From assembly GCF_000392435.1 (NCBI RefSeq), contig NC_021219.1, forward strand, positions 600,001-632,000: DNA of 32,000 nucleotides, written 5' to 3'. The notes beneath the pieces are model-generated. The model saw nothing but the letters and a program-made list of their open reading frames with translations, searched no databases and had not been told where the DNA came from. Position 1 is the stretch's first letter. Every line of letters begins with the position of its first letter. Shown in pieces: positions 62 to 23,160 of the stretch. Made by a program: the position numbers and the translations under genes. This DNA is from Candidatus Saccharimonas aalborgensis (GTDB lineage Bacteria; Patescibacteriota; Saccharimonadia; Saccharimonadales; Saccharimonadaceae).

Positions 62-124
62 TATATTTGAGTGATCGCAATAATAAACCGCTCCGGCTTC
101 TGGGGCGGTTTTCGTACCAGAGAG

Positions 125-153
125 TTGTCCGCTTGTGCTTATCGAGGTATACT
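125..153 (+). promoter_or_regulatory. sigma70-type promoter, leaderless-type geometry
   Basis: TTGTCC (125-130), 17-nt spacer, TATACT (148-153). ATG 161 lies 7 nt after the -10 box and there is no SD. Confidence 0.45.
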
Positions 154-160
154 AGCTAAC

Positions 161-1066
161 ATGAGAATTACGGTATTAGCACGATGCGCACTTGTCGTGG
201 CAGGAACATTTTTGGTAGCGAGTGCACCCCAGGCAGTCCATGCGGCGGATCAGGTAGAGAGTATCACCCTGTCTCCAACCAGTAAGAAGTATACGTTTGA
301 TCCCGGATCAACAAAGGAAGATTCGTTTACTATCCTCAACGATGGTGAAGTGGCATACGACTTCTTAGTCTACGCAGAGCCATACTCACTTGATCCCGTA
401 ACAAGCCAACCTATCTATCAGGGGAGTAAGGCAGCAAACGCCGATGCCAATACGTGGGTGTCCTTCGCGCAGACTAGGTGGCACATTGATCCACATCAGT
501 CCGTACGGGTGCCGTATACAATTCGCGTCAAAGACACCGCTTCGCCCGGTGGACACTACGGGGTGATATTTGCAGAGACGCAGCCGCAATCGTCCGATAC
601 TCAGGGTGTGTCGCTTGGACGAAAGAAGCGCGTAGGGATGATCATCTATAGTACGGTTACAGGTGATCTAAAACCGGCGGGTGCAGTTAAGCAGATTCAG
701 ATCGACGGGTATCAGTCTCAGACGCCGCTTGAAGCATCGGTCCATATCGAGAACACAGGTAATACGGATTTTTTCCCCACCGTTAGCTACCGAGTGGAAG
801 ATGTCTTCGGCAATACAAAATACCAAACGACAAGCTCGGACCATATCGTGCTGCCCGGTATCACTCGGACGATTCCTATGAGTTGGGATCAGGCATCGTG
901 GTTGGGGTTCTATAAAGTCACGGTCAGTACAACGGTGTTGGGCAATACCACAACCCAGTCTTCGTACGTATTTGTCGCACCGCAGTGGTTTATTCTCCTT
1001 GTGGTAGTCTTGATAGCAACGGGTGTCGTTTATGCGATACGTAGTCACCAGACACGCCGTCGTTAG
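161..1066 (+). CDS. DUF916/DUF3324-like (CscA-type) cell-surface protein; signal peptide plus C-terminal TM anchor
   Basis: From ORF 71..1066; the preferred start is ATG 161 (MRITVLARCALVVAGTFLVASAPQAVHA, a signal peptide). There are two beta-rich halves (YTFDPGSTKEDSFTILNDGEVAYDFLVYA; PGGHYGVIFAE; HIENTGNTDFFP). The C-terminus has a TM helix WFILLVVVLIATGVVYAI followed by a basic tail RSHQTRRR. The family call rests on architecture and motif pattern only. Confidence 0.55.
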   Translation: MRITVLARCALVVAGTFLVASAPQAVHAADQVESITLSPTSKKYTFDPGSTKEDSFTILNDGEVAYDFLVYAEPYSLDPVTSQPIYQGSKAANADANTWVSFAQTRWHIDPHQSVRVPYTIRVKDTASPGGHYGVIFAETQPQSSDTQGVSLGRKKRVGMIIYSTVTGDLKPAGAVKQIQIDGYQSQTPLEASVHIENTGNTDFFPTVSYRVEDVFGNTKYQTTSSDHIVLPGITRTIPMSWDQASWLGFYKVTVSTTVLGNTTTQSSYVFVAPQWFILLVVVLIATGVVYAIRSHQTRRR

Positions 1067-1850
1067 GCGCGTTGCCGTTGCTGCAGTGGTCACCATGACC
1101 CTAGTTTTGGGGGCCGCCCCTAGCTATGCTCTCACGTCAAATAGTGGCACAACCATCAATGTTGGTATTTGTGGTACCTCTGGAAGCACGCAATTGGCTA
1201 TTAGTTCTCCAGTGGCAAATTCGACTGTGTCCTCGGTCCCTGTGACGATACAAGGAGTGGTCAACCGGATATCGCAAATTTCTGTCTACCGTGATGGTCA
1301 GTATGATGGCGTCATACCGCTTAACACTGGTGCAACTACGTTTAGTTACATTGCGACTATGACGGCCGGTAGTCACGTGTTTCGATTTGAGGGTGTCGAT
1401 ATTTGTCAGCAGACAACACCTGTTGCTGAGATAACGATTACCTATGATCAAGCTGTTATTATCACGCACCCATCAACTCCCGGGACAGCATCGAACCCTG
1501 GTACTACGACACCAGTGACTGGGCCGGGTATCACTGAGTTTTTAGAAGGCCTTCCGCCGATAAAAATTATTTCCGATGGGTTCTATAAGCTGCTGGTGTG
1601 GTTGGATTTTGCATCACCGACCTCCTTTAGCTCTGTACCACGGATGGCCCAGCGCTTTACAGGAATGACTGTTGGACTCGCACTACTATTTTTGGCGCGC
1701 CCGCTCCTCGATGGTTATCGCTATGTTCGTTACGTAAAACTTGGTTGGCGCGCCCGTCCATTGCCGCTAGTCCTCCGTAGCCATCCCCTGGTTCTCCTGC
1801 GTATCTCCGGACTTATCATTATCACTATCGTCATTCTATTTCTCGCATAA
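1023..1850 (+). CDS. secreted Ig-like-domain protein with two C-terminal TM helices
   Basis: GTG 1023 or ATG 1032 is the start, overlapping the upstream stop. Arg-rich n-region plus hydrophobic core and SYA|LT cleavage-like site. Bacterial Ig-like pattern (LAISSPVANSTVSSVPVTIQGVV..ISVYRDGQY..GSHVFRFEGVD). Pro/Thr linker. Hydrophobic C-terminus (MTVGLALLFLARPLL; LLRISGLIIITIVILFLA). Confidence 0.55.
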   Translation: MSFMRYVVTRHAVVRRVAVAAVVTMTLVLGAAPSYALTSNSGTTINVGICGTSGSTQLAISSPVANSTVSSVPVTIQGVVNRISQISVYRDGQYDGVIPLNTGATTFSYIATMTAGSHVFRFEGVDICQQTTPVAEITITYDQAVIITHPSTPGTASNPGTTTPVTGPGITEFLEGLPPIKIISDGFYKLLVWLDFASPTSFSSVPRMAQRFTGMTVGLALLFLARPLLDGYRYVRYVKLGWRARPLPLVLRSHPLVLLRISGLIIITIVILFLA

Positions 1851-1877
1851 GTTTGTCTCTGATATACTGAGAAAAGC

Positions 1878-3263
1878 ATGAGGGTATCTGTGAGGAACGT
1901 AGGTGTGCTGCTACTTGCCATTATGATAGGCGGTAGTTTTGTTAGCACAGTGAGAGCTGATCGATATAGCTCGTCTCATTATGTGATTGATGCCAGTGTC
2001 GTCGGCAATAGTTTCGGTGGTTCACAGAGCTCCACAAGTTACAAACTAACGAGTAGCGGCGGTGAGAGTATTGTCGGCAATGGACAGGGTGGCAGTTATA
2101 AGGTAGGAATGGGATACGTGGCGCAGTTAGATAAGAGTTTGACCCTGAGCTTGCAGCCAAGTGGTTTGAAGGCGTATTACCCACTCGAAGAAAATAGCGG
2201 TACGTTCACCAGAGATAGCAGTATAAACACTAGTAATGCCGATCTTCAAACCGGAACAACGTGGACGACGGGAAAGATAGGAAATGCGGTAAACACCAAT
2301 GCTAGCTCGTATGTGCAGGTACCCGATAGTACTAACCTCACGTTTAGTCAGAACATGACAGTCTCGCTCTGGGCAAATCAGGCATCAGCATCAACGGACA
2401 AGGCACTAATTGCTCATTGGAATCAAGCAGTGAGTAGTTCATGGGCGCTGCAGACCGGAACAAGTGCAAGTGTTCTGCGCGTTTTTATCGCGAACAGCCA
2501 GGGCGATACGGGCGGAAACTGTGTCGATACAGACGGAGCCTGGTCGGCTGGTTCATGGCATCATGTTGCGCTTGTCTATGATGGTACGCAAAGTACCGCG
2601 CTCGACCGAGCAAAGGTATACATTGATGGTGTTGTCCGCCCAATGTCTGTCTGCTTAGGAACGATACCAAGTTCACTGCAAGACAGCTCATCGTATCTAA
2701 CGATTGGCGCAATGCGCGGCCTTGGTAGGTATTTTAATGGTTCGCTTGATGAGGTGAAAATGTTTAATCGATCGCTCTCGGCCGATGAGGTCAAAGCTGA
2801 GTATGATGCGCAGGCGGCGGGCGTCTCGAGTGGTGTCACTTTGGGCACAATTACACCGGGCGTATCAAACAATGTGCTTGCTGACGCAGTGGTCGAAACT
2901 GATGCTAGCAGCTATACGCTTGCGATTAACCAAAACAATGATCTGACGAGTGGTTCCTATACAATCCCTGCTATTTCCAGTGGTACGATTGCTTCACCGG
3001 TTGCCTGGAACGAGGGGACAACTAAGGGTCTCGGATTTAGTCTTACGGCGACGAATGCTACTGCTATACCGGGATCATGGGGCAGTGGTGCAAATTATGC
3101 AGCGTTTCCCGGTACCGCCACCACTTTTTATACACGTACCGGCATGCCGACCGCAAAAGATTATGTTACTCTCAAAATTCGAGCAGATGTATCGACGACG
3201 CAGGTGAGTACAATCACGCCGTATAGCAATATCGTGACAGTGACAGGTACAATCACTCCATGA
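1878..3263 (+). CDS. LamG / concanavalin-A-like lectin domain surface protein
   Basis: Signal peptide VGVLLLAIMIGGSFVSTVRA. N-terminal triple S-x-x-Y motif (SSSHYVI, STSYKLT, GGSYKVG). Laminin_G_3 hallmarks: NLTFSQNMTVSLWAN, WHHVALVYDG..AKVYIDGV, YFNGSLDEVKMFNRSLSADEVKAEY. A C-terminal ~150-aa beta-rich domain ends YSNIVTVTGTITP*. The extended -10 TGaTATACT (1860-1868) sits 9 nt before the ATG. Confidence 0.75.
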   Translation: MRVSVRNVGVLLLAIMIGGSFVSTVRADRYSSSHYVIDASVVGNSFGGSQSSTSYKLTSSGGESIVGNGQGGSYKVGMGYVAQLDKSLTLSLQPSGLKAYYPLEENSGTFTRDSSINTSNADLQTGTTWTTGKIGNAVNTNASSYVQVPDSTNLTFSQNMTVSLWANQASASTDKALIAHWNQAVSSSWALQTGTSASVLRVFIANSQGDTGGNCVDTDGAWSAGSWHHVALVYDGTQSTALDRAKVYIDGVVRPMSVCLGTIPSSLQDSSSYLTIGAMRGLGRYFNGSLDEVKMFNRSLSADEVKAEYDAQAAGVSSGVTLGTITPGVSNNVLADAVVETDASSYTLAINQNNDLTSGSYTIPAISSGTIASPVAWNEGTTKGLGFSLTATNATAIPGSWGSGANYAAFPGTATTFYTRTGMPTAKDYVTLKIRADVSTTQVSTITPYSNIVTVTGTITP

Positions 3264-4144
3264 AATGTCGATTAGTTTTGGCGAGCGTCGTCGGTGTGTT
3301 GATCGGAGTCAGTGGGGGTACTCATTCGGTGCAGGCTGTATCGCTTAAGGTCACGCCGCTTGAGTATCGAACAACACTCCGCACGGGCGAGAAGAAAAAA
3401 GGATTTGTCGATATCGCCAACCCCGATACGGTCGCAGTAACGGTCACATTCACTGTCCAGGCATTTCGGCAAACTGATAATAATGGATCATTGCAGTTTT
3501 ATGACGACCCGCATATCGCAAAAGGCATTCAGCTTGACCTTGATAGTGTTAGGTTGGGACCTCGAGAAGTAATCCATCTGGCATTTTTGCTGGATGGATC
3601 AGTATTGCCAGCGGGTGACACTTATGCAGCGATCTTTGCGGCATCGACACCGTCATCGAACGGAATGGCGCAGGCAGCGCGAGTTGGGACGTTGCTTTCA
3701 ATTCAAAACGGCACACCCGCAGGTCACGAGGCAAAGGTTTCAGCACTTGCTGCCTCCTTCTTCCAGGTTGGCTCGGAACTTACTGCCACTATCGATGTTA
3801 TGAATCAAGCCGATCCGGCAAAGTATACTGGGTATTATCCAAAGATAGTCGTTGGCTCTGTTCCTTACGGACAAAAAACAGTCGAGGGTCCGCTCGTTTT
3901 TGCTGGCAGAACTCGCACGATTGATTATCGCCAGCCAGGGAACTATTTTGGATTTTTGTTGATTGAAGCCTCGGCTGAAGGCGGTAGTAAGTCACAGGTG
4001 GTGTTTGCGATAACTGGCTACTGGCGTTGGCTCATGCCGATTATCGCTGTTGCATTGATTGTGATAGCGCTCTATGTATATAACCAACGAAAAAAACACC
4101 GGTATCGTACTCACAAAAAAGTGACCAAAATCCCTGTTAAATAG
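3260..4144 (+). CDS. second DUF916/DUF3324-like (CscA-type) membrane-anchored surface protein
   Basis: ATGA start/stop overlap with the LamG gene (3260-3263). Signal peptide (LVLASVVGVLIGVSGGTHSVQA). Same layout as 161..1066: VSLKVTPLEYRTTLRTGEKKKGFVDIANPDTVAVTVTFTV, PAGDTYAAIFAAS, a second beta domain, a TM helix WLMPIIAVALIVIALYVY and a Lys/Arg tail. Confidence 0.5.
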   Translation: MKCRLVLASVVGVLIGVSGGTHSVQAVSLKVTPLEYRTTLRTGEKKKGFVDIANPDTVAVTVTFTVQAFRQTDNNGSLQFYDDPHIAKGIQLDLDSVRLGPREVIHLAFLLDGSVLPAGDTYAAIFAASTPSSNGMAQAARVGTLLSIQNGTPAGHEAKVSALAASFFQVGSELTATIDVMNQADPAKYTGYYPKIVVGSVPYGQKTVEGPLVFAGRTRTIDYRQPGNYFGFLLIEASAEGGSKSQVVFAITGYWRWLMPIIAVALIVIALYVYNQRKKHRYRTHKKVTKIPVK

Positions 4145-4173
4145 TTGTCATAAGCAGTATACTATACTATAGC
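4145..4173 (+). promoter_or_regulatory. candidate promoter of the first tail-fibre-like gene
   Basis: TTGTCA (4145-4150), 17-nt spacer, TATAGC (4168-4173). GGAGA SD at 4184-4188 lies 6 nt before TTG 4195. Confidence 0.35.
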
Positions 4174-4194
4174 CGTATTAAACGGAGATAGTAA

Positions 4195-4761
4195 TTGAGG
4201 TTCACTAAAAGACAAATTCAAGCGGTGTTATTCTTCGCAATACCAGTAATCATGGCATTCCTGGTCAATTTTGCGTTCCCGGCCTCTGTTCACGCCCTCA
4301 CCACCATCCCCTACAAGCTAAACTTCCAAGGCCGCCTGACCGATGCTTCTGGTAACCCTATGGCTGCTGGTACCTACAACATGAAATTCCGTATCTATGA
4401 TGCCAGTAGTGGGGGAACCCTAAAGTGGAGTGAGCAACGTGCCAATAGCGCTAGTACTGGTGTTACTGTCACCACTGGCGGTCTGTTCAGTGTCCAGCTC
4501 GGTGATGTATCGAGTCTGCCTGCTAATATCTTTAGTACCACCGACACTGCTACCCTGTACTTTGAGATAGAGCTCCCAACCCCCGCTACAGCTACCTGTA
4601 CTGGTGCATCTTGTGAATCCTACACTGAAGGACCTATGACCCCCAGAAACAAACTAGCCTCCAGCGCCTACAGCTTCAACTCCGACCTACTGGATGGGTT
4701 GGATTCGAGTGCTTTTGCGCAGGTAGGGGCAACACCAGCTTTACCGGTACACTTGGCGTAA
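4195..4761 (+). CDS. 5' fragment of a frameshifted tail-fibre-like surface protein gene (signal peptide plus shared N-terminal module)
   Basis: TTG start with a GGAGA SD. Signal peptide AVLFFAIPVIMAFLVNFAFPASVHA. Residues [14 protein letters not shown]...SSAFAQVGA are encoded by the 444-bp repeat. The ORF ends 29 nt after the repeat (TPALPVHLA*), while homology to the paralog continues in the -1 frame. Confidence 0.6.
   Translation: MRFTKRQIQAVLFFAIPVIMAFLVNFAFPASVHALTTIPYKLNFQGRLTDASGNPMAAGTYNMKFRIYDASSGGTLKWSEQRANSASTGVTVTTGGLFSVQLGDVSSLPANIFSTTDTATLYFEIELPTPATATCTGASCESYTEGPMTPRNKLASSAYSFNSDLLDGLDSSAFAQVGATPALPVHLA
4289..4732 (+). repeat. 444-bp direct repeat, copy 1 (identical to 6893..7336)
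   Basis: Compared base by base by eye: all 444 positions are identical, offset 2604 bp. The flanks on both sides are unrelated at nucleotide level. Confidence 0.95.
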
Positions 4762-4808
4762 ATCTGTCGAGTAGCACGGCATTTACTGTTGGCGCAAGTG
4801 GTACCAAT

Positions 4809-6146
4809 GTGCTGACGGCCGACACCACGAATGCGCTGGTCAAGATAGGTACTGCAGATAGCACTAGTCAGGTGCTGGTGCTCGACACCAACACTGCAGA
4901 TCCTGGAGCGGGCGCGACGTCGACCAACGGTGCGATGTACTACAATTCCACATCGGGCAAGTTTCGCTGCTACCAGGGTGCATGGACGGATTGTATTACT
5001 GCTGCTGGCGGCGCGACGCTGCAGACGGCCTACACCGCCTCGACTGGTGGCACAACACCGGAGATCAAGGCTGATGCCACACGGGCCGGGTTCGATATTC
5101 AAGATGCCGATACCACCATTGCTGGTACGTTATTTGCCGTGCGGGGGAGTAATGCCGGTGGGCTCGGTACAGCGCTCTTTGATGTTAGCAGCACTGGTGC
5201 AGCGCAATTTACTGTGCCATCGGCGTCGGCAACGGCTTTCACGCTACAAACTGCCGCCAGCACAAAGCTATTTGTCGCTGATAGTACAAGCGCGCGGATA
5301 TACATAGGCGGGTCAGCGGTGACAACCAATCCAATTACCCTTGTACTCAGCAACGCCTCGTCGGCATCCGACCCGACTGGGGTTGCTGGTTCGATGTACT
5401 ATAGCACCGCGAAAGATGCCTTTCGCTGCTATGAAGCTGGCATATGGCGTAATTGTATCGGCAATACTGACTCTACATCGGGTTATCGCTATGCCAATGA
5501 CCTGCTGGGGTCATTTACGACAACGGGTGATGTTTTCGCCAGCTCGACTGGCACCGGTGCTGCCACAGCGACGAGTAACGCAACCATTGCCACAAACCGC
5601 CCTGGTACATTTCGTTCGACGACTGGTACGACGACGACCGGACGAGCGGCATTCGGCTCGACAACAAATGCATTAGCATTAGGTGGGGGGCTCACACTGT
5701 ACGAAACAGCCGTCAACGTCACGACACTTTCTGGTGCGACGAATCGCTATAGCATGGTAGTCGGCTTCTATGATTCGACCACGGCTAACCAAGTCGATGC
5801 TGTCAGTTTTGTCTATGATGAAGGTGGTGTATCGACTGGTTCGACGGCGAGCGCAAACTGGCAAGTCGTCACGTCTTCGAACAGCACTCGGACGTGGACC
5901 ACCACCACCACGGCAGTCGGTGCAGGTACATGGGTTAAACTTGGCATCATTGTCAATGCAGCTGGTACCAGTGTCGGGTTCTATATCAATGGCACACTAG
6001 TGGCGACTCATACGGCCAATATCCCGACCGGTACTGCTCGAGCGCTTGGTTTTGGTTCACAAATACTCAAATCGGTCGGTACGACGGCTCGGACAGTCGA
6101 CATCGACTACTTGCAAGCCGAGATGGAATTCACGACGCCGCGGTAA
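4809..6146 (+). CDS. 3' fragment of the same frameshifted tail-fibre-like gene; ConA-like jelly-roll C-terminal domain
   Basis: This frame is open from 4629. From 4731 it reads NTSFTGTLGVNLSSSTAFTVGASGTNVLTADTTNALVKIGT, colinear with the paralog. Two G(A/S)MYY..FRCY..W..C motifs are present. The C-terminus (NWQVVTSSN..WVKLGIIVNAAGTSVGFYINGTLVATHTANIP..VDIDYL) looks like a LamG/ConA-type jelly roll. Confidence 0.6.
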   Translation: MLTADTTNALVKIGTADSTSQVLVLDTNTADPGAGATSTNGAMYYNSTSGKFRCYQGAWTDCITAAGGATLQTAYTASTGGTTPEIKADATRAGFDIQDADTTIAGTLFAVRGSNAGGLGTALFDVSSTGAAQFTVPSASATAFTLQTAASTKLFVADSTSARIYIGGSAVTTNPITLVLSNASSASDPTGVAGSMYYSTAKDAFRCYEAGIWRNCIGNTDSTSGYRYANDLLGSFTTTGDVFASSTGTGAATATSNATIATNRPGTFRSTTGTTTTGRAAFGSTTNALALGGGLTLYETAVNVTTLSGATNRYSMVVGFYDSTTANQVDAVSFVYDEGGVSTGSTASANWQVVTSSNSTRTWTTTTTAVGAGTWVKLGIIVNAAGTSVGFYINGTLVATHTANIPTGTARALGFGSQILKSVGTTARTVDIDYLQAEMEFTTPR

Positions 6147-6157
6147 TCGGGTATACT
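6129..6157 (+). promoter_or_regulatory. sigma70-type promoter, leaderless-type geometry
   Basis: TTCACG (6129-6134), 17-nt spacer, TATACT (6152-6157). ATG 6164 lies 6 nt downstream and there is no SD. Confidence 0.4.
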
Positions 6158-6163
6158 AATAAT

Positions 6164-6652
6164 ATGAAAGTAGACATGACATCAATGGGTGGTAGGGCGC
6201 GCAACGATGAAGATCGTGCAATTTCTACGTTACGCAGGCGGCCTGTTCTACGACGAGACATGCTTAGGATGACACGATTCTCGGTATTTGGTGCGGTGAT
6301 CTTTATTAGTGTCCTAATTTTTGCTGTATCGTTATATGTCCTCAATGGTCGTGATACATTGATTGATCCCTCGAAATATCAAGTGGTCTACCTTATAAAC
6401 GGACAGGCATATTTTGGTAAGTTACAGAATGTTCACGGTGAGTACTTGGTTATCAATAGCCCGTATACCGCACAAACAGCTCCGCAGCAGGCCAGTGACA
6501 AAGAGGCGGAGCAAGCTACGACACTTTTGCGTGTACGTGATCAGGTGTACGGCCCAGAAGACGCCATGTCCATAAAGTCGAGTCAGGTTGTGTTTTGGCA
6601 AAATCTTCGCGATGATAGCAAAGTGACACAGGCGCTCAAGAGTAAACAGTAG
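6164..6652 (+). CDS. small single-pass membrane protein, function unknown
   Basis: 162-aa ORF with a basic N-terminus, one TM helix (FSVFGAVIFISVLIFAVSLYVL) and an extracytoplasmic domain YQVVYLINGQAYFGKLQNVHGEYLVINSPY...VVFWQNL. It sits between the two repeat copies. Confidence 0.6.
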   Translation: MKVDMTSMGGRARNDEDRAISTLRRRPVLRRDMLRMTRFSVFGAVIFISVLIFAVSLYVLNGRDTLIDPSKYQVVYLINGQAYFGKLQNVHGEYLVINSPYTAQTAPQQASDKEAEQATTLLRVRDQVYGPEDAMSIKSSQVVFWQNLRDDSKVTQALKSKQ

Positions 6653-6704
6653 TACGTTCATACCATCTTTGGTAGTTATACCCAGTATTTGAATACTGCA
6701 TCGT

Positions 6705-6733
6705 TTGACGTTTCAAACCACAAGCACTATAGT
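6705..6733 (+). promoter_or_regulatory. candidate promoter of the LVIVD adhesin gene
   Basis: TTGACG (6705-6710), 17-nt spacer, TATAGT (6728-6733). A 15-codon ORF begins 5 nt after the -10 box (ATG 6739). Confidence 0.45.
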
Positions 6734-6825
6734 ATACCATGAGCCATACTCTCATTTCCTTTGAGTGGTGTGGAGAAAATAAATAATAAACGGGAAGAAA
6801 AATAATAAACACGACTAAAAAATCG

Positions 6826-9579
6826 TTGTTGTTATTGTTCGCGCTACCATTTATCTCCGGATTTGTAGCGCTGTTTTGCGTATCTAATAATATTCACGCC
6901 CTCACCACCATCCCCTACAAGCTAAACTTCCAAGGCCGCCTGACCGATGCTTCTGGTAACCCTATGGCTGCTGGTACCTACAACATGAAATTCCGTATCT
7001 ATGATGCCAGTAGTGGGGGAACCCTAAAGTGGAGTGAGCAACGTGCCAATAGCGCTAGTACTGGTGTTACTGTCACCACTGGCGGTCTGTTCAGTGTCCA
7101 GCTCGGTGATGTATCGAGTCTGCCTGCTAATATCTTTAGTACCACCGACACTGCTACCCTGTACTTTGAGATAGAGCTCCCAACCCCCGCTACAGCTACC
7201 TGTACTGGTGCATCTTGTGAATCCTACACTGAAGGACCTATGACCCCCAGAAACAAACTAGCCTCCAGCGCCTACAGCTTCAACTCCGACCTACTGGATG
7301 GGTTGGATTCGAGTGCTTTTGCGCAGGTAGGGGCAAGTAACACCTGGACGTCTACCAACTTAATCAAGGTTGATAGCGCAACAGCTTTTCAGGTTCAAAA
7401 TGCAGCTGGCTCAACGACGGTTATGAGGGTTGACACGACTGCAAATCGGCTCATGGTTGGCACGCTTGGCACAAGTACTGGCCAACTCTATGTCAGCGGC
7501 AGACTACCAACTGCTTCACTTGGTTCAGTGGCCGTGGGTACGGCGACCCGATCAGTCGCTGTGCAAGGCCGTTATGCTTATACTACAAACTCGACGTCTG
7601 GTGCCCTTAAAGTCTTTGATGTAAGTAACCCAGCAAGCCCAGTCAGTGTTGGCACCATCTCGAGTACTAACGCCTATTTCGTGGCGGTGCAAGGTCGCTA
7701 CGCCTACGTGACAAGTGCAGTTGGTAACACATTAAGCATATATGACGTTAGTAACCCAGCAAGCCCAACGAGTATGGGGTCAGCATCAGTCGCTGGCGCA
7801 TATTCGGTGTATGTGCAAGGTCGCTACGCCTACGTCGGTAGTAACAGCGGCACATTTACCATTGTCGATGTCGGTAATCCGTCCGCACCAATCGTTGCAG
7901 GTTCGCTTAGTATCGGTGCAGGCGCATTGCAGTCAGTCTATATTCAGGGTGTGTATGCCTATATTGTTGATAATACTAACTCAACACTAAACATTGTGAA
8001 TATTAGTAACCCCGCCAGCCTGAGCGTAATAGGCTCACTAGTAATCGGGACGAATATAAAAGCAGTTTCGGTTCAGGGTCGCTATGCCTATATTATTGAC
8101 AATGGCGGTAGCGCACTCAATGTGATTGACGTGAAGAATCCTGCTTCGCCAACCAGCGTCGGCTCAGTTGCGACTGGGTCTTCACCCCAGTCTCTCAGTG
8201 TGCAAGGCCGCTACGTATACGTCACAAACGGAACCGGTAACACTCTCGGTATTTATGATGTATCGACGCCGACCGCTCCTGCTAGTGTTGGAACTGTTGG
8301 TACCGGTAACTTGCCAATCGCCGTGAGCGTTGTTGGTCGCTACGCCTACGTCATTAATTACACGTCCAATACACTCACAACCTATGACGTCGGTGGTGCC
8401 TACGTTCAGCAACTCGAGGCCGGAGGGGCAGAGCTCGGTACGTTGTCTGTCAATGGCAACACGCAGTTGGTGGGTGACGCAATCATTAATGGCGGGCTGA
8501 GTGTTGGGTCGGCAGCGCAGATAAGCGGCGCACTGACAGTTGGGCAAAGTGTGCAGTTTAATGGTGACTTCGGTGTAGGTGGGCGAGTGAATTTGCAGAA
8601 TGTGATCAATTCGACGACGGCCGTGCAGATCAACAATGCCGCTGGAGTAAATTTATTTACGGCTGACACGACTAACTTTACGGTGCAGATAGGACTACTC
8701 GGAACCGATAGTAATGCCGCACTCTTCGTACTCGATTCATACAATCAAGCAACTGACCCAACTGGTTTCAACGGGGCCATGTACTACAACACTAGCCTTA
8801 ACAAGTTTCGCTGCTACCAGAATGGAGCATGGGCAGACTGTATTGGGAGTGGCTCGGGCGCTAGCCTCAGCGCCAATAATACGTGGACAGGAACCAATCT
8901 TTTCAAGACGACTAGCGCAAGTGCTCTCCAAATTCAAAATGCGAGCAGTGCCACTCTTCTGACGGCCGATACAAGCGCAAATCAAGTGGTGATTGGCAGT
9001 ACGAGCGACGGTATCACACTTGGCGCGAGCGGACTCCTCTATGTAGGTACTGGTCGACCGAGCGCTCAAATTACACTTTCGGCAGAGTACCCAGGAGCAA
9101 CGTTCACTGGCGACGGAACTAGCAATAACGGCTCACTTAGCAGCGATTTTTGTTCTGGCTCCTCACGACTCAATATCAACACGGGCGTCTGTGCCGCCAC
9201 AGAGACACATAATTACTATGCTTGGACAACCACCCAAGCGAGTGCACAGGACTACGATGTGTATGCTCGCTACCAGCTACCCAGCGATTACGACACGGGC
9301 AGCCTGACAAATCTTAAGATCTGGGGCTGGGGGACATCAACCACGACCGATCAAGTGACAGTGGCAATGTATGTCGACAGTAGTGGTACGGCGTGCAGTA
9401 CCAGCGGCAATGCAGTGTCAAGTAATGCAACTTGGGTACAAGTGACAGTTGCATCGCCGCTCGGTGCATGTACGCCGGTTGCGGGTGATATGGTGACATT
9501 TAAGGTGCGTGTGGTTGCTGGACAGAATAACTATGCACGTGCGGGAGAAATAAATTTTAGTTATAAGAGGAAATCCTAG
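6826..9579 (+). CDS. large tail-fibre-like surface adhesin with a 7-blade LVIVD beta-propeller
   Basis: Signal peptide [24 protein letters not shown]. The next 148 aa are identical to the 4195 ORF. Seven ~42-aa LVIVD-type repeats follow, then NTWTG-type fibre repeats and a [23 protein letters not shown] motif. The C-terminal beta domain is Cys-rich. The start is uncertain: TTG 6826 is the first classical start, and the frame is open from 6790. Confidence 0.8.
6893..7336 (+). repeat. 444-bp direct repeat, copy 2 (identical to 4289..4732)
   Basis: See copy 1. Identity starts in the last signal-peptide codons (HA|LTT) and ends at GGGGCAA (..AQVGA). Confidence 0.95.
7555..8397 (+). repeat. seven tandem ~126-bp coding repeats (LVIVD blades)
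   Basis: The consensus V.VQGRYAY(V/I)....(N/G).[13 protein letters not shown] recurs 7 times. The 23-nt string GTGCAAGGTCGCTACGCCTACGT occurs at 7687-7709 and again at 7813-7835, exactly 126 bp apart. AGTAACCCAGCAAGCCCA also recurs with the same 126-bp spacing, at 7623-7640 and 7749-7766. Confidence 0.85.
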
Positions 9580-9582
9580 ATT

Positions 9583-11982
9583 ATGGTGGCACGTGGATTA
9601 AAATTTGGAGTCCTATTAATGACTGTTACACTGATTTTTTCACTAGTGGTCTCTCGATTTGCGGGTGCGGCTATAAGTTATCGGGCAGCTGGTCTTGGCA
9701 ATAATGCGGGCGGTGCTACCACACTAAATGTCAGCAAACCTAGCGGTGCGCAAGATGGTGATATTTTGATAGCAGTTATCTCGGTTCGTGGTGGAACAAG
9801 TACAACAATCACACCTCCGGCAGGTTGGACGCTAATTAATAGTAATGATAGTACAACGATTTTAAAAAGCTCAGTTTTTTGGAAACAGTCTTCAGCATCT
9901 GACGATAGTATATATACGTTTAGTTTTAATTCGTCACAGAAAGCATCAGGGGTCATATCGGGTTATAGTGGTGTGGATACGGTGTCGTCACCAGTAAATG
10001 CACAAAACAGTCAGGTGAATGCCTCATCAACCTCTATGACGGCTCCAGATGTTACGACTACAGTTACTAATACGATGGTTATTGCCGCTTACAGTACGGC
10101 AACGGGCACCACTATGACTGCCGGAAGTAGTATGTCGTTGCGTGGCCAAGACGCGAGTACTGGCGGATCTGCGGCGACGCGTACAACATCTGGCTTGCAA
10201 GATATCATCCAGCCCACCACCGGCTCTACGGGTACAAAAACCATGACCACTGGCACGGCAGCAGTAAATATTGGTCATACGATTGCGCTTAAGCCAGCGG
10301 CGAGCGTGTCTCAGGTGGGCTATAGGTTTTTTGACAACACAGATAGTACTTCTGTTACAACTGCCATAGCTGCGAAGGATACTGCGGCCTCAGTGAGCTC
10401 GGGAGTACCATTTCGCTTAAGGATAAACTTGGGCGTATCATCGTCCGAAGGCTCGGCACTAGCGGGTCTGACGTACAAGTTACAATACGCGCTGCGGGGC
10501 GCCGATAATTCCTGTGATACATCATTTACCAGTGAGAGTTATGCTGACGTCTTGACGTCTGCAACGCCAGTAAGGTTCTACAACAATGTGACACCATCTA
10601 ACGGTGCAGCCTATTTGACTAATGCCAGCGACCCGACACGCTCTGGTGTCACGGCGGTTGGTCAAACCTATAACGAAGATAATCCCATATCAGTCACAAC
10701 ATCAACTCCAGCTGGTCAAGACATGTTGTGGGATATAGCGCTGATGACTAGTGGCGTTAGCGCAGGTGAGCACTATTGTTTACGTGTTGTGAAAGAGAGT
10801 ACGGGCGCTACTTTGAACGGAGGCTATAGTGTTATACCAGAGGTAGCCATAGTCGCCGCAACGGTCACACAAGCTAACTATCGTTGGTATAGTAATGCTG
10901 ACTCTACAACGCCGGGGAGCGTTCTTGCTGCACAAGACACTGCTGCTTATAGTGTTGCGGCAGGTACACCTATTCGGCTTCGTCAGCGTTTGGCGGTAGA
11001 TACAGCCAGCCTGGGGATAAACCAAGATTTTAAGTTACAGTACGCTGAACGTTCAGGTATCTGTGATACCTCGTTTAGCGGGGAGATGTTTTATGATGTG
11101 AATAATCCCGGAGGAGAAAACCAGTCTGTCACAGCGAATTCTACCATAGTTTCTGAGAATACATCGTACGGGACGTTTAGCTGGACATCACCACAAAATG
11201 CTGCCGGAGAAGACAGCACATATGCGCAGTTAGCAGGGGCAACTACTGGTTCGTACTATTTACAGTCTTCGCAGCATGGATTCAATATTCGGCCTGACGC
11301 TACTATTTCTGGTATTGAGCTGAAAGTTAGGGTGTACTATGAAGGCTATGACGCGTCGGATTCGAATGTTAGATTGGCAAAAGCTGGTATTCCGGTGGGG
11401 ACAAATCACGCGACAAGTGCTTCATTTAGCTACATGAGCCCAGCTTATTATACATATGGCTCACCGACTGATTTATGGGGCACAACTTGGACTCCCAGTG
11501 AGATAAATGATACAAATTTTGGCGGTATGTTTTCTGGGTGGACGAGTGATTCTGTTCCGGTAGGAACGCTGTATGTCGATAACATGCAAATAGTTGTCTA
11601 CTACACCGTTCCCGACATAATTAAGTTTTATGATAACGTAACACCCACAAATGCGGCTTCGATATCTTCTATCGGTAGTGATCCTACAAACGGTGTAAGA
11701 GGTACTATCTATCAAAGCTATCAAGAGGTAAATCTATTTTCAGCTAGTACGGTTGTAGCTGCCGGTAGCGACGGCTTATGGGATTTCGCGCTGGCAACTG
11801 ATTCGTCAGTAGCCGGTAAAACTTATTGCCTCAGAATGGTCAAAAGTGATGGAGGGTTGCTCGATACCTACACGAATATTCCCGAAATCAGTTTTGCATC
11901 AGCAGGCGGGCCAACGCTAGACCAAAAAACGCGCGGTGGCCAAGCTGTGGTCGACGGGGTGAAATCACCATATAGCTTCTAA
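9583..11982 (+). CDS. 799-aa secreted repeat protein, unknown function; duplicated ~180-aa module with a nested insert domain
   Basis: ATG 9583 lies 3 nt after the upstream stop, with AGAGGA 11 nt upstream. Signal peptide LKFGVLLMTVTLIFSLVVSRFAGA. N-terminal domain with GDILIAVISVRGG..ITPPAGWTLI. Modules begin VGYRFFDNTDS (10315) and ANYRWYSNADS (10873). Both end (H/T)YCLR(V/M)VK....IPE(V/I). Confidence 0.7.
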   Translation: MVARGLKFGVLLMTVTLIFSLVVSRFAGAAISYRAAGLGNNAGGATTLNVSKPSGAQDGDILIAVISVRGGTSTTITPPAGWTLINSNDSTTILKSSVFWKQSSASDDSIYTFSFNSSQKASGVISGYSGVDTVSSPVNAQNSQVNASSTSMTAPDVTTTVTNTMVIAAYSTATGTTMTAGSSMSLRGQDASTGGSAATRTTSGLQDIIQPTTGSTGTKTMTTGTAAVNIGHTIALKPAASVSQVGYRFFDNTDSTSVTTAIAAKDTAASVSSGVPFRLRINLGVSSSEGSALAGLTYKLQYALRGADNSCDTSFTSESYADVLTSATPVRFYNNVTPSNGAAYLTNASDPTRSGVTAVGQTYNEDNPISVTTSTPAGQDMLWDIALMTSGVSAGEHYCLRVVKESTGATLNGGYSVIPEVAIVAATVTQANYRWYSNADSTTPGSVLAAQDTAAYSVAAGTPIRLRQRLAVDTASLGINQDFKLQYAERSGICDTSFSGEMFYDVNNPGGENQSVTANSTIVSENTSYGTFSWTSPQNAAGEDSTYAQLAGATTGSYYLQSSQHGFNIRPDATISGIELKVRVYYEGYDASDSNVRLAKAGIPVGTNHATSASFSYMSPAYYTYGSPTDLWGTTWTPSEINDTNFGGMFSGWTSDSVPVGTLYVDNMQIVVYYTVPDIIKFYDNVTPTNAASISSIGSDPTNGVRGTIYQSYQEVNLFSASTVVAAGSDGLWDFALATDSSVAGKTYCLRMVKSDGGLLDTYTNIPEISFASAGGPTLDQKTRGGQAVVDGVKSPYSF

Positions 11983-22103: not shown

Positions 22104-23160
22104 CCTAAATTCACCCCCCAATCAGGACACTCCCTCTAGAATTAATCCTTTCTCTTTTGCAACTTGTAATGAACTTTTGTAGCCGAGGATCTTCCTCGGC
22201 TTGTTGTTGATGCGCGTGAGCGCCATGTCAACATCCGTTTGTGTCACTGTAGCAAAGTCGGTGCCCTTCGGGAAGTAGCGACGCAGCATCTTGTTGGTGT
22301 TCTCGACACTGCCTTTTTGCCAAGAGGAATAGGGGTCAGTAAAGAAGACGGGCGCGCCCGTCTTCTTAGTGACGAGTGCGTGGCGCCTGTTCTCGATGCC
22401 GTTATCAGTCGTCATACTGCGAACCCCCAGCCCACTCGCGAGTCGCGAGATGGTGTGTGCGTACGGCTCTGGCTTCAGGTTAGGTACGAGCTTCGCTCGT
22501 ACCAGTCGTGAAGACCGTTCGGTAAGGACAGCGAGTGCAGAGACGCTCCCTGGGTGCTTGCTGCTCACGACGCTGTCGTATTCACAGTGACCGGTCTCGG
22601 CTCGGTCTAGAGCGACCAGCGGTCGCTCTGTGACGGAAGTGCGGTCGGGAATCATGACGTGACCCGCCCTGAGTTGTCTGCGTGGTTTCTTGCGGTAACG
22701 CTTCGAGTACAGCAACGGGCAGTACTGTTGTCCCCAGGCACTGCGCAACCATTCATAGATGGCCGTCTTGCTGGCATAGATACCAAGCGCTGAGTTGGCT
22801 CTGAGATAGCCGGCTATCTCGTCTGGATTCCAGTGCTCAGAGAGTTTCAGGACGATGAACGAGCGAAGCTCGTCATTGTCTTGAATCTTCTTGCCTTGGT
22901 AGCGAGCATACTTACGCCGTACATAGGCTTTGTGTTTGGCGTGGGTAGCGACGTATCTCCCATCCTTGAGGCTATTGCGTTGCAGCTCGGTCGCAATGGT
23001 ATTGGGACTGCGCCCCAATGCACGGGCGATGGCCCGTGCAGAATAGCCTTTGGTATGGAGGATGTCTATCTCGCTCCGCTCGGCATCCGTTACCTTTGAT
23101 GCTTTCTTCATGGTGTGTATTGTCTAGCATCGGGTGTCCTGATTCAAAACGGAATGGAGG
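22104..23160 (-). mobile_element. IS30-family insertion sequence, 1057 bp, apparently intact
   Basis: Left end CCTAAATTCACCCCCCAATCAGGACAC (22104-22130). The reverse complement of 23134-23160 is CCTCCATTCCGTTTTGAATCAGGACAC. 18 of 27 positions are identical, including an 11-bp perfect core. TAT flanks both sides (22101-22103 and 23161-23163), a 3-bp target duplication. It encloses one DDE transposase ORF. Confidence 0.75.
22122..23111 (-). CDS. IS30-family DDE transposase
   Basis: 329 aa. N-terminal HTH (GYSARAIARALGRSPNTIATELQRN). DDE region (SMTTDNGIENRRH; FFTDPYSSWQKGSVENTNKMLRRYFPKGTDF). Confidence 0.93.
   Translation of the reverse strand: MKKASKVTDAERSEIDILHTKGYSARAIARALGRSPNTIATELQRNSLKDGRYVATHAKHKAYVRRKYARYQGKKIQDNDELRSFIVLKLSEHWNPDEIAGYLRANSALGIYASKTAIYEWLRSAWGQQYCPLLYSKRYRKKPRRQLRAGHVMIPDRTSVTERPLVALDRAETGHCEYDSVVSSKHPGSVSALAVLTERSSRLVRAKLVPNLKPEPYAHTISRLASGLGVRSMTTDNGIENRRHALVTKKTGAPVFFTDPYSSWQKGSVENTNKMLRRYFPKGTDFATVTQTDVDMALTRINNKPRKILGYKSSLQVAKEKGLILEGVS

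Follow-up and report, generated by a model that had tools for sequence, protein, structure and literature searches.

Within a stretch of 32,000 nucleotides (nt) from the genome of Candidatus Saccharimonas aalborgensis (contig NC_021219.1, positions 600,001 to 632,000; this whole stretch is called the window here, and positions are counted from its first letter), two adjacent genes, gene 1 and gene 2, encode secreted fibre proteins, and a perfect direct repeat encodes the first ~147 mature residues of both. The comparison with related strains indicates that this identity is the product of recent gene conversion between paralogous modules, most probably by ordinary homologous recombination at a hypervariable locus for fibres that resemble the mosaic adhesive trimer (MAT) fibres of Bdellovibrio bacteriovorus (Caulton et al., 2024; PMC10769870; NCBIfam NF053851). 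We give this reading a probability of about 0.85. The features that carry it are as follows, where aa stands for amino acids and ORF for open reading frame.

4289..4732, plus strand: repeat copy 1, the MAT_N-like mature N-terminal module of fibre gene 1 (exact identity to copy 2; NF053851 match with E 4e-8; relatives share only 4289-4728)
6893..7336, plus strand: repeat copy 2, the module of fibre gene 2 (100% identical in every LVIVD-carrying relative)
4195..4761, plus strand: gene 1 leader (signal peptide 1) and module, with a premature TAA at 4759-4761 after 9 out-of-frame codons
4731..6146 (from about 4731), plus strand: gene 1 body in frame 3, a fibre shaft with a C-terminal SO2946-like_C domain (translation, PF22237, ORF frame analysis)
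6826..9579, plus strand: gene 2, with signal peptide 2, module, six LVIVD beta-propeller repeats and a C-terminal region (917 aa from TTG 6826)

By repeat search and string comparison, 4289-4732 and 6893-7336 are identical at 444 of 444 positions, in direct orientation and 2604 bp apart, and the perfect repeat with sharp edges that a preliminary description of this DNA had reported was thereby confirmed. The maximal exact match is 444 bp, and chance as its source is ruled out. At the 5' side the identity begins with the second base of a Val codon in gene 1 and of an Ile codon in gene 2, in the signal-peptide cleavage region (V-H-A/L-T-T versus I-H-A/L-T-T), and at the 3' side it ends after GGGGCAA. 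The leader regions of the two genes are 45% identical without gaps, whereas the bodies share at the nucleotide level a single patch of 76 nt with 75% identity and, as proteins, 43% identity over 79 aa. Flanks that are essentially unrelated, with bodies distantly homologous as proteins, had been described before, and this holds except for the 76-nt patch, where nucleotide similarity has been retained. The tract that is common to the population measures 440 bp and extends to 4728 and 7332, respectively. It excludes the final four nucleotides (GCAA), which match in the window because one A is missing in gene 1. No inverted repeats of at least 30 nt were found in the repeat search of the window.

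Relatives were recovered by exact look-up of the flanking 294-aa and 162-aa proteins, which yielded more than 15 related loci. Proteins of the close relatives bear the name Candidatus Saccharimonas aalborgensis or Candidatus Saccharibacteria. The 162-aa protein is encoded between the repeat copies:

6164..6652, plus strand: gene of a 162-aa single-pass membrane protein, present in all two-gene relatives and absent in contigs L018 and L019

The same two-gene layout is found in CP064959 (979 kb), CP065015 (1,007 kb), CP065017 (936 kb), a 348-kb contig and others, and within each of these relatives the modules are identical over 440 bp with 0 mismatches. Single contigs of 936 kb-1.007 Mb, 348 kb, 11.8 kb and smaller, coming from several projects, span both repeat copies. 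The duplication is thus real and no assembly artefact. An origin of the duplication, or of its perfect identity, in assembly or polishing, with one copy or two diverged copies in the real genome, had been raised in the preliminary description, and some observations would fit: the source genome is a metagenome assembly, the only odd base of gene 1 lies exactly at the repeat edge, and short-read assemblies do not bridge the repeat. However, the three CP genomes named above and the 348-kb and 11.8-kb contigs span both copies without a mismatch, and the contigs of short-read assemblies are broken 30 or 127 nt inside the repeat (k-1 or k bases), as is expected of a true repeat, so that independent read sets contain the two entries as well as the two exits. 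This explanation was rejected for the duplication and is highly improbable for the identity as well.

The way in which the short-read contigs end has a consequence of its own. L001, L002, L020, L021, L022, L010, L028 and L044 each have an end that lies 30, 127 or 137 nt inside the module, and the fibre locus is systematically fragmented in public metagenome-assembled genomes (MAGs) of the species, including the GTDB species representative. As the latter is broken at the repeat (L028, L044), the fibres per genome were not countable by exact-peptide scan.

The window pair shows 0 differences in 146 codons and a synonymous divergence (dS) of 0. In two relatives, L014 and L006, the gene-1 module is unconverted and differs from the gene-2 module at 39-48 of ~440 nt, overwhelmingly at synonymous sites, and the gene-2 module of both is 100% identical to that of the window. 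Among gene-1 module alleles dS amounts to 0.41-0.48 and in the other paralog comparisons to 0.73-1.54. The encoded protein varies far less, with 2-9 amino-acid differences in 144-146 codons across paralogs, a non-synonymous divergence (dN) of 0.017-0.063 and a dN/dS ratio of about 0.04-0.07, which points to very strong purifying selection on the module protein. This near invariance might suggest that selection alone, on the protein or on the DNA or RNA, has kept the two copies identical without recent recombination between the genes. However, equally constrained module pairs outside the window differ at 39-80 nt, mostly synonymously (dS 0.41-1.54), whereas the window pair differs at none, and we regard selection as the sole cause as scarcely credible. 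Zero synonymous divergence in the window pair therefore requires recent gene conversion, as had been proposed in the preliminary description. Its remark that the identity does not look like purifying selection is right in that recent conversion is needed and has to be amended in that the protein itself is very strongly constrained. Relatives with synonymously diverged modules had been named there as evidence against recent conversion; L006 and L014 are such relatives, yet the comparison with them supports it.

Further traces of exchange are visible in the gene-1 module of L006, in which short patches match either the window module or that of a neighbouring third fibre gene, gX. Such patches are the signature of repeated short conversion tracts. 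For the direction of the event in the window, the module of gene-1 allele A was compared with those of alleles B and C, giving dS values of 0.41 and 0.48, and the adjoining body gave 0.30-0.43. Because its divergence is about that of the adjoining body, the allele A module looks native to gene 1, and these values favour, with some reservation, a conversion from gene 1 to gene 2.

Strain comparison revealed several structural variants at the locus. L018 (ENA, SPAdes, ~2x coverage) and L019 (Joint Genome Institute) have a single gene of 907 aa directly after the 294-aa gene. In it the gene-1 promoter and leader 1 are fused with a single copy of the module and the LVIVD body, and the 162-aa gene has been lost. 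A deletion between the repeats that fuses leader 1 to the LVIVD body had been predicted in the preliminary description, and exactly this structure is present in these two short-read contigs. They stem from independent assemblies, have the single-nucleotide polymorphisms (SNPs) 838T and 856G as common private variants and encode an identical protein (P0037), and the deletion allele is likely to be real.

A different arrangement occurs in L009 and L013, where position 2 is occupied by leader 2, the module and a NosD/beta-helix fibre of 1111-1153 aa, and the 799-aa gene that follows gene 2 in the window is absent. The module at this position has 84% nucleotide identity and 6 amino-acid differences in 144 codons (~96%). 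Both contigs represent a more divergent lineage, in which the flank 3904-4194 differs by 20%. Gene 1 and the 162-aa gene of L009, L012 and L013 are nevertheless near-identical to the window, with 2 differences in ~1950 bp. A near-identical cassette beside a 20%-diverged flank implies a very recent cassette exchange between the lineages.

L006 carries the third fibre gene gX (L006:5548-7560), which encodes 670 aa with a leader-1-like signal peptide and a module that is 86% identical. Residues 403-670 of its product, forming the tip, match the phage family phrog_13925 (E 1.7e-61, last 268 profile positions), which suggests that tips are common to bacterial fibres and phage proteins. Across the strains, four body types were found at the locus: SO2946-like_C, the LVIVD propeller, NosD/beta-helix and the gX tip. 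The occurrence of the module on other C-terminal bodies in relatives, proposed as a check in the preliminary description, is thus documented by the beta-helix/NosD fibres of L009 and L013 and the 670-aa extra fibre of L006.

The sharp edges of the repeat and the unrelated bodies behind it could also be explained by a recent segmental duplication, or by the graft of a domain onto a gene that formerly had no module. However, every fibre gene at the locus in every strain already carries the module (84-91% nucleotide identity for gene-1 alleles B and C, gX and the beta-helix allele), and the signal-peptide and post-module regions keep residual homology, so that both genes were module-bearing paralogs before the event. 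A graft instead of conversion is therefore very unlikely.

The module and the body of gene 1 had been described as joined in one gene. In the window they are not in frame, as one A is missing at the 3' edge of the repeat:

4728..4729, plus strand: frameshift site, with one A absent between the two bases in comparison with all relatives (GGG[A]GCAAC)

The gene-1 junction reads GGGAGCAACACC in the relatives and GGGGCAACACC in the window, and 13 of 13 gene-1 junctions from related assemblies have GGG-A-GCAACACC, i.e., AQVG-SNTSFTG. Read leftwards from the unique body 1 (after 4740), the intact-type and null-type junction strings are GGGAGCAAC and GGGGCAAC, respectively. When the single A is re-inserted, a protein of 631 aa results which is residue for residue P0023, encoded by CP064959, CP065017, a further MAG and a Logan assembly. 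Without it, ORF 4195-4761 gives a stub of 188 aa ending in AQVGA-TPALPVHLA before the stop, for which public annotations use the start ATG 4252 (169 aa, P0001). The body follows as an annotated-type fragment of 445 aa (4809-6146, P0020). It matches PF22237 (SO2946-like_C) with 142.6 bits over profile positions 1-163 of 163, above the gathering score.

The frameshift products P0001 and P0020 are on record solely for the source contig (1,013,781 bp). The missing A could have arisen by a 1-nt deletion, by a conversion tract resolved in a shifted GCAA, a tetranucleotide that the two genes have with an offset of one base at the 3' edge of the tract, or by an error of contig joining or consensus through this microhomology. 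Gene 1 as written is thus a null allele with a stub of 169 or 188 aa, and this is either a true mutation private to the sequence or an error made in joining or in the consensus at the boundary of the repeat. The start coordinates of the Logan contigs give weak hints that conflict, L002 fitting a 440-bp repeat and the pair L020/L001 a 444-bp repeat. An exact look-up of 12 guessed edge-truncated products of the frameshift allele in Logan contigs found none on record and is uninformative, as are two metagenome pattern scans across the gene-1 junction, for the intact and the frameshifted allele, which gave 0 hits in a collection that seems to be without the locus. Splits of fibre genes in other relatives (56+503 aa, 130+502 aa and 843+54 aa) are at scattered positions, and one disruption is due to the loss of one G from the G-run at 4411. 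These scattered frameshifts may be sequencing errors, namely homopolymer errors if the data are long reads, which is an assumption. The frameshift turns a 631-aa gene into two "hypothetical proteins", and it should be checked against the reads before gene 1 is called a pseudogene.

A null allele, a deletion fusion, an extra gene, alternative tips and mosaic patches at one locus in close strains, together with a frameshift exactly at the tract edge, might be taken as a dedicated system of programmed variation. In such a system, acting by cassette switching or phase variation, the module would be the recombination handle and the frameshift the OFF state. However, among the ORFs scanned and at the site itself no site-specific recombinase, invertase, diversity-generating retroelement, inverted repeat or simple-sequence tract was found, and the frameshift context GGG[A]GC is not such a tract. 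Each gene has its own leader and silent cassettes are thus lacking, the frameshift allele did not turn up in any other assembly, the other frameshifts are scattered and possibly erroneous, and variation has been demonstrated between strains only. Programmed variation is therefore improbable, even though it is the strongest of the alternatives.

What the exchanged module is was approached by family and structure searches. No Pfam family matched it. The NCBIfam model NF053851 (Bdello_MAT_N) matches the two module ORFs of the window with E 4e-8 and 2e-5, and gX and the intact gene 1 of relatives with E 2e-6 and 1.4e-5. It also matches 8 of 10 diverse representatives of the family, four of these alignments spanning about positions 6-161 of the 162-position profile. 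By these matches the module appears to be a distant but significant homologue of the Bdellovibrio MAT N-terminal domain and not a member of the Bdellovibrio subfamily. An exhaustive protein search with the module returned 14,069 cluster representatives at E <= 1e-3, 227 of them at E <= 1e-30. The proteins of the top hits measure 160-2500 aa and have the domain N-terminally or close to that end, mostly behind a leader of 30-60 residues, and the bodies sampled behind it are of beta-helix/NosD, LVIVD propeller and unannotated types. No relatives were found in viral contigs by a module-alignment scan, which was limited to one peptide pattern.

The predicted cleavage site (HA/LTT) marks the start of the module. 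An AlphaFold2 model of the monomer is beta-rich (mean confidence, pLDDT, 77), with seven strands and a disordered neck, and no PDB homologue was detected by sequence (best E 0.72) or by fold (best E 8e-3, template-modelling score 0.33). By analogy with the MAT fibres, a cell-surface partner common to the fibres probably serves as the docking site of the module. We also considered whether a frameshift or recoding site downstream of the module is conserved, as the hits of the first search were mostly of 90-250 aa and some had tails that looked out of frame. This idea was dropped because the domain is N-terminal in hundreds of long proteins, the short hits being contig-end fragments and a product of word-index bias.

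Conversion between paralogous modules by general homologous recombination, which we infer as the mechanism, would have worked as follows. Genes 1 and 2 are paralogs for secreted fibres, each with its own promoter and signal peptide, a beta-rich module of ~147 aa, a shaft and a different C-terminal tip. Strong constraint on the module protein would keep the DNA of the paralogs similar enough for RecA-type homologous recombination. One module would then have overwritten the other non-reciprocally, over the tract between the cleavage site and the first indel behind AQVG, leaving 440 identical bases. The perfect 440-bp repeat would in turn permit unequal crossing-over, giving the deletion fusion and probably also the expansion in L006, and recombination between strains could, through the conserved module and flanks, replace entire tip cassettes.

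Several points weigh against parts of this scheme. The direction of conversion, which we likewise infer, is based solely on the comparison of dS. The gene-2 module is 100% identical across strains that differ by 0.2-2% elsewhere, and part of the identity therefore reflects the recent population spread of a single allele and not repeated conversion. Both contigs with the deletion allele come from short-read assemblies, one with ~2x coverage, and the passage from copy 1 directly into copy 2 could be a jump made by the assembler. All Bdello_MAT_N scores are 23-38 bits, under the curated NCBI cut-off of 60. Finally, the trimeric architecture, the surface location and the host binding of the fibres are predictions from sequence, and their presumed anchoring and host-recognition function has to be read in the same way.

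Besides the module, gene 2 is characterized by PF08309 (LVIVD), which matches with 136 bits in six stretches, above the gathering score. A DNA periodicity of 126-129 nt at 7617-8351 corresponds to these repeats. Start variants in public annotations give 916, 914 or 871 aa. The gene is flanked by the following features:

6705..6733, plus strand: sigma-70-like promoter match upstream of gene 2 (TTGACG-17-TATAGT, 10/12, a consensus match only)
9583..11982, plus strand: gene of a 799-aa protein without family match, accompanying the LVIVD cassette and absent where position 2 is a beta-helix fibre

The 799-aa gene is apparently part of the LVIVD cassette. It shows block-wise mosaic SNPs and a 3-nt indel (9981-9983) between strains whose remaining sequence is 99.5-99.9% identical. 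In the shafts of all fibres a cysteine motif, G(A/S)MYY..(K/D)(F/A)FRCY(Q/E)..(A/I)W..CI, recurs, at 4935 and 5394 in gene 1, at 8779 in gene 2 and three times in L009:5087-8422. It is the only site at which nucleotide similarity between the bodies remains (the patch of 76 nt at 75%), and it may mark further module boundaries.

Upstream of gene 1, at 71-4144, four consecutive genes have weak matches to PamR and PamT of the Pam pilus of the Candidate Phyla Radiation (CPR), to TafC and to Laminin_G_3/Glucodextran_B. The scores for PamT and PamR are 19-30 bits against cut-offs of 240-300. Together with the fibres these genes may form an adhesin or pilus-like operon. The genes downstream are housekeeping genes (fpg, holA, truB, S15, PNPase), there was no sign of a prophage at the locus, and no recombinase or reverse-transcriptase domains were detected in the window ORFs scanned with Pfam and NCBIfam. 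An ORF of 328 aa at 22122-23111 on the minus strand contains HTH_38 (E 9e-17), a domain type as at the N-terminus of IS30-type transposases, with no catalytic domain detected. Its distance from the fibre locus is ~13 kb, and a relation to the fibres is unlikely.

Little is known about host choice and host binding in Saccharibacteria and other CPR episymbionts, for which type IV pili have been the main candidates so far. The present locus indicates that Saccharibacteria possess fibres of the same build as the MAT fibres used by Bdellovibrio in prey recognition, with a constant N-domain that is highly constrained as a protein and variable tips that are exchanged, fused and lost among close wastewater strains. 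It supplies candidate host-range determinants and a natural allelic series for tests. One may go further and speculate that the module also serves as the recombination handle of the host-recognition fibre repertoire of an episymbiont, by which populations fuse, delete, duplicate and import tips, some of them common to phages, and switch fibres off, e.g., through a frameshift at the end of the tract, a proposal that we consider doubtful at present. If it were true, changes of the fibre repertoire would change which host bacteria are attachable, and the locus would be a CPR counterpart of MAT "tip swapping" and phage tail-fibre mosaicism, observable in a natural strain series.

Gene conversion and unequal crossing-over are well known in paralogous surface-protein and tail-fibre genes with a constant N-terminus, e.g., in opa and pil of Neisseria. 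The locus resembles opa/pil and tail-fibre mosaics in that identity is confined to the conserved module and in having mosaic patches, deletion and duplication products and variable receptor-binding ends. Unlike these systems, it has no silent cassette arrays, guide sequences or invertases, but two to three expressed paralogs in tandem, and its variation is seen between strains and not within a clone. In a literature search we found no paper that ties Saccharibacteria to LVIVD proteins or fibres, to MAT fibres or to gene conversion at such a locus. Conversion and tip exchange of this kind are already known, and what is new is the setting in Saccharibacteria together with the natural allelic series.

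A "tail fibre-like protein" is reported to adjoin the CPR Pam pilus operon consistently (bioRxiv 10.64898/2026.03.03.709456). The setting in CPR/Saccharimonadia and the position of the fibre genes beside weak PamT/PamR matches are similar here, whereas the PamA/PamB pilin and the ATP synthase neighbourhood were not identified in the window and the PamT/PamR matches are far below cut-off.

The closest resemblance in architecture is to the MAT fibres. Their N-terminal domain of ~130 aa follows directly after the signal peptide, is beta-rich and has no structural homologue in the PDB (PMC10769870). It is presumed to bind a cell-surface element, and the tips are diversified (PMC10769870). The fibres described here likewise consist of a signal peptide, a conserved beta-rich N-domain of ~130-150 aa without PDB homologue, a long shaft and a diversified tip, occur as several paralogs and belong to a bacterium that lives by attachment to other bacteria. 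In contrast to Bdellovibrio, however, the host of the window is a Gram-positive-like episymbiont without an outer membrane, no Pfam match to the S74 chaperone/protease domain was reported in the window fibres, and the tips are of the LVIVD propeller, SO2946-like_C and beta-helix types in fibres that are known from sequence. While "tip swapping" is a matter of speculation for the MAT fibres (PMC10769870), exchanged and fused tips can be seen here directly in the comparison of strains.

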